A stretch of DNA of 64,000 nucleotides from a virus (lineage: Duplodnaviria > Caudoviricetes). This document shows, in pieces, positions 13,829-19,473 of this stretch. A program made the position numbers and the translations under genes. Position 1 is the first letter of the stretch. The number at the start of each line of letters is the position of its first letter. The stretch covers positions 13,833 through 77,832 of IMG/VR virus record IMGVR_UViG_2706795618_000001. One strand, 5' to 3'. Below the pieces are notes generated by a model that saw only the letters and a list, made by a program, of their open reading frames with translations, searched no databases and was not told where the DNA came from.

Positions 13829-13846
13829 CCGAAAGAAGGGGTTGCA

Positions 13847-14245: not shown

Positions 14246-14520
14246 TGACGCCGCTGCGGCCGGGCGACCGGCTGTGGATCGGCCTGTTGGCCTACGTGGT
14301 GGGGGCCAACGTGTGGGCCACAACGCACAACACCGAGATGCTGAGCGAGGTCTGCGACCGCCAGCTGAAGGTCCATCGCTGGCTGACCGAGGTGGTGCTG
14401 GCCGCTCTCTACTGCCACCTCTCCAACCGAGTGCCCGACCGGTACGACCCGATTCACTGGCTGTTCGTCGGGGTCAAGGCGACGGCAACTCGACTGATGC
14501 GTAAGGAGATTGATACGTGA
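14242..14520 (+). CDS. Small membrane protein preceding lysin
   Basis: ATGA overlap; hydrophobic N-terminal segment. Confidence 0.65.
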   Translation: MMTPLRPGDRLWIGLLAYVVGANVWATTHNTEMLSEVCDRQLKVHRWLTEVVLAALYCHLSNRVPDRYDPIHWLFVGVKATATRLMRKEIDT

Positions 14521-15170
14521 GCGCTGTGGATGTGCTGTCCCAGGCGATGCTGGGGTCGGTGAGCCGGGAGCGGTACGCCCAGCTGCTACCCGCGTTGTCG
14601 GAATGCCTGGTGCGCTGTGGATGCACCACGGTGCCCCGGATCGCCATGTTCAACGCACAGGTCGGTCACGAATCGGCCGGCCTGCTGTACATGTCGGAAA
14701 TCTGGGGACCGACTGCCGCGCAATGCGGTTACGAGTGGCGTACCGACCTGGGCAACACCGTCGCGGGTGACGGCTACCGGTTCCGAGGCCGCGGCCCCCT
14801 GCAGGTGACGGGCCGGGGCCACTACACCAACCTGTCACGGTGGGCCTACAGCCAGGGCCTGGTGCCCACGCCCACGTTCTTCGTGGACGATCCCGACCAG
14901 CTGGCCGGTGACCGATACGGCTTCATCGGCGTCACCTGGTACTGGACGGTGGAGCGGCCCCAGCTCAACGCATTGGCCGACGCGCGCGACATCGTGGGCG
15001 CTACCCGCGCGGTCAACGGCGGGACCAACGGGCTGGAGGACGGCCCGTGGGGTCCGGGTCGCCGTACCCGCTGGAACCGCAACCTCGCCATGGGATCGGC
15101 GCTGCTTTCGCTACTGGAGCAACAGGATTGGCAACCCGTCCTGGACTACCTGCAAGGGAGGACGCTGTGA
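14517..15170 (+). CDS. lysA: Lysin A subunit, GH19 (chitinase/lysozyme-like) glycosidase
   Basis: HESAGL, DGYRFRGRGPLQVTGR, VNGGTNGL motifs. Confidence 0.93.
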   Translation: MSAVDVLSQAMLGSVSRERYAQLLPALSECLVRCGCTTVPRIAMFNAQVGHESAGLLYMSEIWGPTAAQCGYEWRTDLGNTVAGDGYRFRGRGPLQVTGRGHYTNLSRWAYSQGLVPTPTFFVDDPDQLAGDRYGFIGVTWYWTVERPQLNALADARDIVGATRAVNGGTNGLEDGPWGPGRRTRWNRNLAMGSALLSLLEQQDWQPVLDYLQGRTL

Positions 15171-15697
15171 TCACCCGACGTAACGCCGACTTCTGGTGGA
15201 GCATCGCGTGGCCCCGAGACCGCAAGCGCTACGGGTACGGCGGGCCGTGGGATCAGTTCGACGTGAACGTCTCCACCGACTGCTCCGGGCTGGTGTCGAA
15301 CTGCCTGGAGGCGTTGGTGCGCGGCCCCGACGGGTTCGACTGGGACCGCGAGCCTTACAGCACCGAATCGTGGCGCGTCGTGGACTACGGCCAGATAGGG
15401 CCGTTCGGCACCATCTGCGTCCGTCGGCCCCAAGACATCCCGGCCGACGCCGCGGTGGCCATCGGCTGCGTCCACGGGGCCGGTGCTGGCCCCAACAGCC
15501 ACATGGCGTGCACAGTGTTCGACCCGATGTACGGACCCATCAACGTCGAGTCGTCCGGTACCTACGGTCAGCGGATCGGTGGCCCCGCAAGGGGTTACAA
15601 CGACCCGATGTTCAAGGACTGGCACTACCTGCCCGGCCCCATCGAGGGCCAGGACTGGCAGCCGGTGCTCGACTATCTGACCGGTCGCACCATCTAA
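15167..15697 (+). CDS. Lysin A subunit, NlpC/P60-like cysteine peptidase
   Basis: GTGA overlap with GH19 stop; YGYGG, DCSGLV, HMAC, NVES motifs. Confidence 0.85.
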   Translation: MITRRNADFWWSIAWPRDRKRYGYGGPWDQFDVNVSTDCSGLVSNCLEALVRGPDGFDWDREPYSTESWRVVDYGQIGPFGTICVRRPQDIPADAAVAIGCVHGAGAGPNSHMACTVFDPMYGPINVESSGTYGQRIGGPARGYNDPMFKDWHYLPGPIEGQDWQPVLDYLTGRTI

Positions 15698-15733
15698 TAC
15701 CCAATCCACCAAATCCCAAGAAGGAGAACAGAA

Positions 15734-16177
15734 ATGGCATCACCTGACGACGTGCAGAACTACCTCCGCGGCCAGGGCTGGTCACGCTGGCTGTATGAGG
15801 GCAGCAACGACGTGCTGGAGAAGTACAAGCGCGCCGTGGGCGACGTGCGCGAGCTGGTCGGCGAGCTGGCATGGAACCTGCTGCGCCATCACGACCAGTA
15901 CGACATCGGCCGCCCCGGGGCACCACAGCCCGGCGACGTGCAGACCAAGCGGACCTACGGCCTGTTCGACAGCGTGAAGCGCACGGTGTTCGAGCTGACG
16001 CTGTGGCTGCCCCAGGTCGGCCGGAAGGAGTTGCTGGCCAAGCGGTCAGGCAAGGAGACGGTGCTGGGTCACGCCGTTGCCGCGGCGTCGGCCGCCAGCC
16101 TGGCGCTGGAAGTGGCGCTCAAGGTGGCCGACAAGGTGGGGGCCGACCTGTCGGACATCGAGGGTCTGGACCGCTGA
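15734..16177 (+). CDS. Lysis-cassette protein, putative non-catalytic lysin subunit
   Basis: Strong RBS AAGGAGAA; between lysin A parts and lysin B; no catalytic motif seen. Confidence 0.6.
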   Translation: MASPDDVQNYLRGQGWSRWLYEGSNDVLEKYKRAVGDVRELVGELAWNLLRHHDQYDIGRPGAPQPGDVQTKRTYGLFDSVKRTVFELTLWLPQVGRKELLAKRSGKETVLGHAVAAASAASLALEVALKVADKVGADLSDIEGLDR

Positions 16178-16179
16178 CG

Positions 16180-17277
16180 GTGGCCACCTGGGACTCCATC
16201 CTCGACTACCTGCGCGGCGACCCCTGCAAGGTGGGTTACTTCGGGGTTCCCGGCACGTGGTCACCGTGGGATGCGGGGTATCAGGCCGACGTTGGGCGGC
16301 TGATCAACTCGGCCTGGTTCTACTGGCAGGGCGTCGGCTACGTCGCCGCGTTCGGCCCGGTCAACGGCCCCATCACCAACCCCTCCTACGCCGAGTCGGT
16401 GCAGGAGGGTGTGGACGAGACGGTGCGGCTGATCCTGGCGCGCCCTGGCCCCATCGTGCTCGGCGGGTATTCCCAAGGGGCCGAGGTGGTGTACTGGGTG
16501 GCCCGGGAGTTCCTGACCGGCGGCCGGCTGGCTCACCGCCGCGGCGATCTGCTGTTGATCGTCACGTTCGGCAACCCCTGCCGCGCCAAGGGGCACGGGG
16601 TCAACCAGGCCACCGCCCACGGGTGGGGCATCTCCCGCAAGCCACCGCTGACGGAGTTGCTGCCCATCTGGCTGGACTACGCACTGCCCGGCGACATGTA
16701 CTGCTGCGCAGACGATGACACCTACCTGGCCATTGGGTACGCCGCGTTGACCAAACTGCAGCTGCACGACCCGTGGCAGCTGGTCCAGGCGATGCTGGCG
16801 CTGATCCAGTCCGATGAGTTCGCCGACGCGCTGGCCGAACTGCTCGACCCCCTGTTCCCCGGGCTGGCCACCACCCTGGGGGAGCTGACCGGAATGGACG
16901 GCGCGGCACTGCTGGCCAACCGCAAGCCGGTCGGCGGGGGCGTGCTGGGCGGGCTGATGTCGGGCCAGCTGCTGACCACCACCCCGGCAGGCGGCAACCT
17001 GCTGGGTGGGCTGATCGGCGCGGGGACCGGCGTGCTGGGTGGGCTGCTCGACGGGGTGATCCCCGGCGGGTTGCCTCCGATTGTCGGCGGCCTGCTCGGT
17101 GGGGGATCGGGCCCGGGCGGCACCCCCACCGGTATGTACAAGCTGGGCAAGACGTTTGCCGCACTGCTGAATTTCGCCACTACCAACGATCACGGTCACT
17201 ACCACGACACCCCGGCGTTTGCCGGAACCAACGCCGTTGCCCACGCCGTCGGCGAGGTCAATCGGCTTGCTGCCTGA
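16180..17277 (+). CDS. lysB: Lysin B (cutinase-like esterase)
   Basis: GTG 16180; VPGTW, GYSQG nucleophile elbow, FGNP, GDMY, terminal His motif. Confidence 0.92.
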   Translation: MATWDSILDYLRGDPCKVGYFGVPGTWSPWDAGYQADVGRLINSAWFYWQGVGYVAAFGPVNGPITNPSYAESVQEGVDETVRLILARPGPIVLGGYSQGAEVVYWVAREFLTGGRLAHRRGDLLLIVTFGNPCRAKGHGVNQATAHGWGISRKPPLTELLPIWLDYALPGDMYCCADDDTYLAIGYAALTKLQLHDPWQLVQAMLALIQSDEFADALAELLDPLFPGLATTLGELTGMDGAALLANRKPVGGGVLGGLMSGQLLTTTPAGGNLLGGLIGAGTGVLGGLLDGVIPGGLPPIVGGLLGGGSGPGGTPTGMYKLGKTFAALLNFATTNDHGHYHDTPAFAGTNAVAHAVGEVNRLAA

Positions 17278-17290
17278 AAGGAATTGGGAG

Positions 17291-17620
17291 ATGACGATTC
17301 TGGACCTCCAGAACCGGGACGACACACGGCGGTTCTTGCACGTCGCACTTCCCGGTATCGCCGCGGTGCTGGTAGCCGTCGGCGTGCTGACATCCGATCT
17401 GGCCCCGCTGGTGGCGTCCACCGTGATGACGGTGTTCGACTCCGTGCTGTCGCGGGTCAACACCAGCGACAAGGCGCGAAAGTGGTTCTATCCGCTGATG
17501 GGCCTGGGGGCCGTCGGGCTGCTGGGCGTGGGCAACTGGCTCAACGCCGACACCGCCCAGTGGCTCGCCGTGGTGCCGATCCTGTTGGGCGGCAGCGTCG
17601 CAGCGGCCAAGACGCCGTGA
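17291..17620 (+). CDS. Holin
   Basis: Several hydrophobic helices; position after lysB; RBS GGGAG. Confidence 0.75.
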   Translation: MTILDLQNRDDTRRFLHVALPGIAAVLVAVGVLTSDLAPLVASTVMTVFDSVLSRVNTSDKARKWFYPLMGLGAVGLLGVGNWLNADTAQWLAVVPILLGGSVAAAKTP

Positions 17621-19058: not shown

Positions 19059-19132
19059 GGGGCGGTAGCTCAGTCGGTTAGAGCCACGGACTCATAATCC
19101 GTTGGTCGTGGGTTCGAGCCCCACCCGCCCTA
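19059..19132 (+). tRNA. tRNA with CAT anticodon (Ile2-like or elongator Met)
   Basis: Acceptor GGGGCGG/CCGCCCT, D-arm GCTC/GAGC, anticodon stem ACGGA-CTCATAA-TCCGT, T-loop TTCGAGC; no encoded CCA. Confidence 0.93.
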
Positions 19133-19151
19133 CAAAGATCGGCCCTGTTCG

Positions 19152-19233: not shown

Positions 19234-19473
19234 ATGGGTCAGACGGTCAAGATCGCCAGCCGCGCGCGTCGGCACGGTGGGGGTCGTGCCCGGATCATCG
19301 CCGCGATGCGGCACTGCCAAGATCCCCAGGTCTCCGAGGACCGGCCGGGTGTCGTGGAATTCCGCGGCCTGGACGACCACGGCAAGGGGCTGGTGATCCT
19401 GGTCCGCGACGGCGACCGTCGGCCGAACGAGCTGGTGGTGTTCCACGTCCACCCGGTCGCGTTCTACCGCTGA
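19234..19473 (+). CDS. Hypothetical protein, possible BrnT/RelE-like toxin fold
   Basis: ARRHG...G.DDHG..L.I...VFHVHP pattern. Confidence 0.5.
   Translation: MGQTVKIASRARRHGGGRARIIAAMRHCQDPQVSEDRPGVVEFRGLDDHGKGLVILVRDGDRRPNELVVFHVHPVAFYR

Follow-up and report, generated by a model that had tools for sequence, protein, structure and literature searches.

Why do three unrelated lytic enzymes of one phage carry the same short peptide, and why does a non-catalytic protein encoded among them begin with a version of it? The question is raised by the lysis cassette of a tailed phage (IMG/VR record IMGVR_UViG_2706795618_000001, positions 13,833 to 77,832), a 64,000-nucleotide (nt) stretch that is referred to here as the window and numbered from its first letter. 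In this cassette, lysin A is split into a GH19 glycosidase and a peptidase, which are followed by a 147-residue protein, hereafter called the hub, and by lysin B. The shared peptide, hereafter called the tag, is probably a portable amphipathic helix that would dock lytic enzymes on the hub to give a lasting multimeric lysin with a swappable set of enzymes.

The tails of the GH19 gene (15123-15170) and the peptidase gene (15650-15697) are identical at 13 of 15 residues, and nine of those 13 codons differ synonymously. Across the tails, 32 of 48 nt are identical, with background identity on either side. The synonymous divergence rules out a recent DNA duplication as the origin of the tails and bears out the initial annotation, which held that the peptide was kept at the protein level. 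Among paired tags within loci, 35 of 62 identical degenerate residues are encoded by different codons. Because paired tags use different codons for identical residues, selection acts on the tag peptide itself, at the protein level.

The signature [DN]-Y-L-x-G occurs exactly four times in the six frames of the window (15144, 15671, 15758 and 16204), once in each of the four proteins, and the longer W-x-x-[VI]-L-D-Y-L occurs three times, in GH19, the peptidase and lysin B. The 10-residue tag helices lie on the plus strand at 15129-15158 in GH19 (W1, V4, Y7, L8 and G10, three residues ahead of the stop), at 15656-15685 at the C-terminus of the peptidase, and at 16189-16218 in lysin B, which begins with the motif from residue 4 (residues 4-13) in place of the usual N-terminal domain. 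The N-terminal helix of the hub (residues 4-13; 15743-15772, plus strand), predicted as a helix in both models of the protein, has the same spacing (V4, Y7, L8, G10) but no Trp. The motif first proposed, W-x-x-[VI]-L-D-Y-L-x-G, thus describes the window correctly but not the general form, since position 7 is usually E or Q and Y is a lineage variant. The general tag is W-x-x-V-x-x-[EQY]-L-x-G, scored in loci as W-x-x-[VI]-x-x-[EQY]-L-x-G.

The hub is not an orphan, and has both stand-alone and lysin-fused homologs. Some 30 homologs (100-147 residues), plus copies at enzyme C-termini, came from a search of 1.8 billion representatives combined with a profile search; single-sequence locus searches of viral contigs with the hub and lysin B gave no matches. 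A second, Q-type hub clade (hhalign 99.3% to the first) occurs in 120 records of Gordonia, Rhodococcus, Tsukamurella and Nocardia phages. Cultured phages with the system include the Gordonia CS-cluster phages and Jumbo. Stand-alone hubs (Jumbo gp32, L066:3863-4234 and phrog_18341) are mislabelled as “lysin A, peptidase domain” or “peptidase”; their counterpart in M23 fusions is the C-terminal part, which is non-catalytic, and these annotations need correction.

The tag follows the hub. Apart from L027, every locus with an intact hub N-terminus and readable neighbors has at least one tag, which makes 28 hub-bearing loci (27 plus L007) of 22 lineages, with 50 tags in all. Of 23 lineages whose hub is intact, 22 carry the tag, compared with 0 of 23 hub-less control cassettes with a terminal tag, and independent variation of motif and scaffold gene, which would speak against the assembly proposed in the initial annotation, is not what is found. 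The controls consist of 21 viral loci, 17 of them distinct, that have a related GH19, peptidase or lysin B gene, the phages Typha, Myrna and Phrappuccino, and three split-lysin Gordonia phages. Mayweather, EricDab and KappaFarmDelta, which have split lysins of other types, carry neither hub nor tag. Since split-lysin phages without a hub have no terminal tag, the tag tracks the hub rather than gene splitting as such. Cultured phages chosen by the hub alone, as a prospective test, have tagged neighbors in GordDuk1, GMA3, Camerico, Yvonnetastic and NC1, and Jumbo, chosen likewise, has tagged enzymes. In the CS cluster, the same hub-first test showed that the M23 partners of tagged amidases are hub fusions. 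Fused hubs without an intact N-terminal helix (L015, L019, L071 and L075) belong to a single lysin with no tagged neighbors. ReqiDocB7 and Braxoaddie, in which the fused hub has a shortened N-terminal helix, have one lysin gene and, like L015 and L019, no tagged neighbors. HNH-like endonuclease genes are found inside or beside some hub cassettes, between tagged enzymes (L009:700-1110, L070:1429-2331 and L073:3017-3499).

A motif-first degenerate DNA scan of viral contigs gave 10 matches, none of which has a detectable hub next to it. The majority lie inside a gene or out of frame, and two are found at the C-terminal end of apparent structural genes (L059 and L060). The scan is uninformative about the association because its strict codon pattern missed known loci too, but it shows that chance can produce the 10-residue pattern by itself. 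In L060 (minus strand, 853-894), a 472-residue tail-like protein ends with a good tag match, although no hub was detected over the next 850 nt downstream; this is either chance or a more distant system.

Two of the phages without a tag have features of their own. The lysin B of Phrappuccino (L069:2609-2950, with gp33), the closest outside the genus, has an N-terminal extension that ends in K-L-D-G at the position of the window tag, and a 100-residue gene just upstream, starting M-A-T-P, also has K-L-D-G in its first helix. The 100-residue protein has no match to the hub profile or to PHROGs, and the two may possibly form an independent tag/hub pair. In KappaFarmDelta, the split lysin A genes gp20 and gp22 (L080:2482-4300) both carry homologous C-terminal modules of about 60 residues. 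A Met right ahead of the module in gp22 suggests an internal start and a related assembly strategy that would use whole modules instead of tags.

The tag is carried by nine unrelated enzyme families: GH19, the peptidase family of the window, Amidase_2, M23, M15, C39, an Rv2525c-like glycosidase, DUF4185 and lysin B. It is found at enzyme C-termini, at N-termini or as an insertion in a lysin B loop, and one to three tagged enzymes adjoin the hub in independent metagenomic loci. Locus L013 has three successive tagged enzymes (amidase, C39 and DUF4185) and then the hub; L020 has the order of the window (GH19, peptidase, hub, lysin B) with E in place of Y; and in Tonitrus, an M23-hub fusion is flanked by tagged enzymes on both sides. 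In lysin B, the tag is N-terminal in the window and L007, while L008, L011, L017, L020, L021, L022 and L024 carry it within the catalytic domain, about 30 residues in, as an insertion of roughly 14 residues where the enzymes of the window, L007 and hub-less phages show a gap. Within the aligned set, a lysin B has one or the other, never both.

This spread bears on the possibility that the tag is a functionless leftover, the first helix of a lysin C-terminal module that remained after fission of enzyme and hub and was spread by recombination. The tag does lie immediately ahead of the hub start in three fusions (P0005, P0008 and P0010), and the hub start resembles a widespread lysin C-terminal module. 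Nevertheless, we regard this explanation as very improbable: the amino acids are conserved despite synonymous divergence, the tag is present on nine unrelated folds, the loop insertion and N-terminal tags of lysin B go beyond what gene fission can produce, and the Trp that is nearly invariant in the tag is missing from the hub helix.

The tag usually occupies the place of the cell-wall-binding or N-terminal domain of related enzymes. As the initial annotation had noted, the GH19, peptidase and lysin B of the window have no recognizable cell-wall-binding domain; Pfam gives none in all three. The homology of the peptidase to ordinary lysins ends at residue 162, right ahead of the tail: 664 phage records match it, and the best non-sibling matches stop at residue 161-162, before the tag. 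From that point on, 17 relatives (244-308 residues) have a peptidoglycan-binding domain and no terminal tag.

Position 7 is the same in tag and hub N-terminal helix in 42 of 48 pairs (24 E/E, 15 Q/Q and 3 Y/Y, the Y/Y pairing being found in this window only). When hubs are shuffled among 27 loci, the permutation p-value is 2e-5, and with related phages collapsed and the window removed it is 4e-4. Position 9 covaries too (p ≤ 5e-4), while positions 5-6 show no covariation of tag and hub in the same permutation analysis. These p-values overstate the certainty because the loci are not phylogenetically independent. Because the tagged enzymes are mutually unrelated, each enzyme had to gain or retain the matching residue.

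The tag helix is amphipathic (hydrophobic moment 0.34, against 0.25 in shuffled sequences), its Trp at position 1 is nearly invariant (38 of 39 tags), and it is neutral to acidic, with a net charge of 0 to -3 in 38 of 39 tags. Its amphipathic character would also suit tags that bind one another or a third partner, such as the holin, the membrane or a wall polymer, with the hub as one more copy of the helix; the enzymes would then be co-targeted rather than assembled, and homotypic helix-helix packing likewise predicts identity at position 7. The net charge, on the other hand, is unlike that of typical membrane-binding helices, the holin family varies (Phage_holin_9 in the window, r1t holin in L022) while the hub is constant, and no tags were found without a hub, which together make this reading rather improbable.

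In its lysin-fused form, the hub is joined to an Rv2525c-like glycosidase (P0005), an M15 peptidase (P0008) and a 77%-identical homolog of the window peptidase (P0010), as well as to M23 peptidases (TIN4, GMA7 and Tonitrus) and a GH19 enzyme (Yvonnetastic). The genes TIN4 gp31, GMA7 gp29, Tonitrus gp51, Yvonnetastic gp48, P0005, P0008 and P0010 have a two-product layout. In L006, L008, L010, L023, L064 and L070, the fusions examined at the DNA level, the Met that starts the hub is directly preceded by an in-frame ribosome-binding site of the GGAG type. This is the layout of CTP1L, CD27L, CS74L, Lys170, LysIME-EF1 and LysP7951, the two-product, single-gene multimeric endolysins, in which a small C-terminal domain fused to the enzyme is also made alone from an internal ribosome-binding site and start (PMC9430671). 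In the window, where the hub is detached, the internal site and start are absent. In the CTP1L/Lys170 type, one enzyme enters the oligomer by its own full copy of the domain; here, unrelated enzymes encoded by separate genes would enter by a 10-residue tag. No sequence relation of the hub to the two-product lysins was found by Pfam or PDB sequence search.

The fusions also bear on the main rival, in which the tag is an export or timing signal and the hub a transient chaperone or carrier, similar to Gp1 of Ms6, with no lasting complex at the wall. Tag-hub binding is required there too, and co-occurrence and covariation fit any direct contact between the two. Ms6 LysA needs a small protein of chaperone-like character for its delivery (PMC3314691). 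In TM4 LysB, translocation is affected by the N-terminal domain (PMC13578437), whose place is taken here by the tag. We nevertheless think this role unlikely, given that the hub often forms the C-terminal domain of a fused enzyme and has a start inside the gene, as is the arrangement in cell-wall-binding multimers (PMC9430671), that the cassette has a holin, and that the N-terminal half of the Q-clade hub matches (hhalign 90%, E 1e-6) a C-terminal module that is widespread among lysins and uncharacterised. The match to this module, which suggests that hub and tag both derive from it, comes from the Q clade; the E-clade profile gave nothing significant against common lysin C-termini by hhalign.

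PlyC of streptococcal phage C1, made of PlyCA and eight PlyCB subunits and called the only two-gene endolysin (PMC6356687), resembles the window in having catalytic and non-catalytic subunits on separate genes of the lysis cassette. It has a single catalytic chain with a dedicated interface, whereas here a portable tag is found on up to three enzymes per phage and on nine families, including lysin B and DUF4185. No homology of the hub to PlyCB was detected by Pfam or PDB sequence search.

The initial annotation likened the system to a cellulosome, in which interchangeable hydrolases bear a common tag for a non-catalytic partner, with lineage-specific recognition residues. Its proposal that the helix assembles the enzymes on the 147-residue protein is supported by co-occurrence and covariation. 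The likeness to a cellulosome holds as an analogy only, in the common tag on swappable hydrolases. A dockerin is a folded domain that binds Ca, and a scaffoldin is a polyprotein made of repeats; here, there is one short helix and a single hub domain of 100-147 residues, so that multivalency would need oligomerization of the hub. No dockerin or cohesin Pfam families were found in the six cassette proteins at E ≤ 0.1. PlyC and CTP1L are the closer model because two-product lysins with an internal start have the hub as their C-terminal domain.

Direct binding of tag and hub would be the simplest account of these observations. The hub may be overproduced and oligomerize in the manner of the C-terminal products of CTP1L, Lys170 and LysIME-EF1. 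A single groove on the core of the hub may receive both the tags and the hub N-terminal helix, or these helices may pack into a common bundle. Both arrangements would explain the identity at position 7, and the extra Trp may let the tags outcompete or complement the hub helix. The hub would provide the wall targeting, and possibly the trafficking, that the enzymes lack, so that peptidoglycan glycosidase, peptidase and mycolate esterase would be delivered together and act at one site.

The extended form of this model, to which we give an even chance, is that a single hub oligomer holds, at the same time, enzymes directed at each of the three layers of the mycolata envelope, with position 7 setting lineage-specific pairing and 30 nt sufficing to add or exchange an activity. 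The layers would be peptidoglycan, arabinogalactan (via DUF4185) and mycolate esters (via lysin B). Tagged stand-alone DUF4185 genes are present in lysis cassettes (L013:906-1904, L012:3-419 and L023:5365-6501). DUF4185 is presumably an endo-arabinanase family, implying that cleavage of arabinogalactan may be part of lysis.

Several points weigh against a hub-built multimeric lysin. The evidence for docking is all comparative, and cell-wall binding by the hub is something we infer by analogy. L027 is the sole exception among intact hubs: its available upstream sequence, 190 nt, contains no tag. Lysin B is untagged in the hub cassettes L009, L062, L072 and L073, and the tagged M15 enzyme of L022 has a PG_binding_1 domain as well. 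The controls are not a random sample, some of them (L045-L051) being distant, non-actinophage GH19s. The E/Q split follows the two hub clades, and part of the covariation therefore stems from common ancestry or from sequence copied locally out of the hub gene. Lastly, tag helix and hub helix are not equivalent, since the hub helix lacks the Trp.

The known multimeric lysins have one enzyme per system (PMC9430671; PMC6356687). The initial annotation considered the shared peptide to be undescribed, and no description of a shared docking tag or of lysin A-lysin B assembly was found in a literature search that left subscription journals outside its coverage. The portable-tag principle has no described counterpart in phage lysis; it is a variant of the multimeric lysin, with an interchangeable tag that is not part of the PlyC or CTP1L/Lys170 types. 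A survey of Gordonia phages has catalogued split lysin A genes and states that their contribution is unknown (PMC9671378). One CS-cluster pair from it, PokyPuppy gp33/gp34, belongs to the hub/tag system, as gp34 has the hub. The accessible parts of this survey and of a report that describes C-terminal motifs C1/C2 of mycobacteriophage LysA (PMC3314691) mention neither a shared tail nor a hub.

If correct, docking on the hub would explain how split actinophage lysins work without a binding domain, a matter left open in the Gordonia survey (PMC9671378). It would also connect lysin A and lysin B physically for the first time, and so offer a testable route by which cleavage of peptidoglycan and mycomembrane is coordinated. 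Such lysins may seem weak when assayed alone, the hub being absent, and a 10-residue tag with a 100-residue hub would be a compact tool for anti-mycobacterial enzyme cocktails. The system occurs in about 120 cultured phage records and is directly testable in M. smegmatis or G. terrae.

The hub family has a conserved core, E-x-T-L-W ... T-x-L-G-H-A-x-x-A-A-S, followed by a long helix. Monomer models of the hub have a predicted local distance difference test (pLDDT) score of 56 (single sequence) or 67 (25-sequence alignment); the latter model is helical, with confidence only at residues 81-140. Fold searches against PDB representatives, BFVD and the ESM Atlas gave generic helical matches only (best match of the pLDDT 67 model Z 4.5, helical hairpins), which point to neither a known nor a new fold, and the hub profile has no PDB sequence match at E ≤ 10 and no Pfam match.

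The window comes from a cluster Y mycobacteriophage, the region having 98.6% identity with Mycobacterium phage Cracklewink (Bippervirus). There, the annotations of the four genes read lysin A glycosyl hydrolase, lysin A protease, hypothetical and lysin B, and a holin comes next. A near-identical cassette (L003) in a bacterial chromosome (CP060409.1, 6.67 Mb) is a cluster Y prophage. The lysin of Typha, a cluster Y sibling, is in one piece. The window departs from the canonical mycobacteriophage lysin A, which unites a peptidase, a glycosidase or amidase and a C-terminal binding domain on one chain, in having three separate genes with GH19 ahead of the peptidase, all on the plus strand. The GH19 glycosidase (lysin A piece 1; 14517-15170, 217 residues, Cracklewink gp32) matches PHROG endolysin families over residues 2-210 (E 1e-74 to 1e-45), and its stop overlaps the start of the peptidase (GTGA). 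The peptidase, of the N-terminal type (lysin A piece 2; 15167-15697, 176 residues), matches phrog_6707 over residues 2-162 (E 2e-60). The hub gene (15734-16177) encodes a mostly helical protein linked to the C-terminus of phrog_6985 and to the phrog_18341 family. It starts 36 nt past the peptidase stop (TAA) in the same frame and is a separate gene with its own upstream ribosome-binding site, AAGGAGA. Programmed read-through from peptidase to hub is ruled out as a general feature, as the frames differ in L007, where the hub starts with TTG, and in L009.

Lysin B (16180-17277, 365 residues) starts at GTG 16180, as in Cracklewink gp35. It belongs with the mycobacteriophage lysin Bs, being a cutinase-like esterase in fold with a G-x-S-x-G motif and homology to D29 LysB (3HC7, E 1.7e-4, residues 21-180); it matches phrog_102 from residue 21 (E 8e-61). 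The last gene of the cassette is an untagged holin (Phage_holin_9, E 1e-12; 17291-17620, plus strand). Just downstream of the lysis region are a tRNA-Met(CAT) (19059-19133) and a gene called a BrnT-like toxin in Cracklewink (19234-19473), beside which no antitoxin is annotated. A long Gly/Leu-rich segment of low complexity (16900-17140) precedes the C-terminal His region of lysin B and is also found in the lysin B of Phrappuccino.

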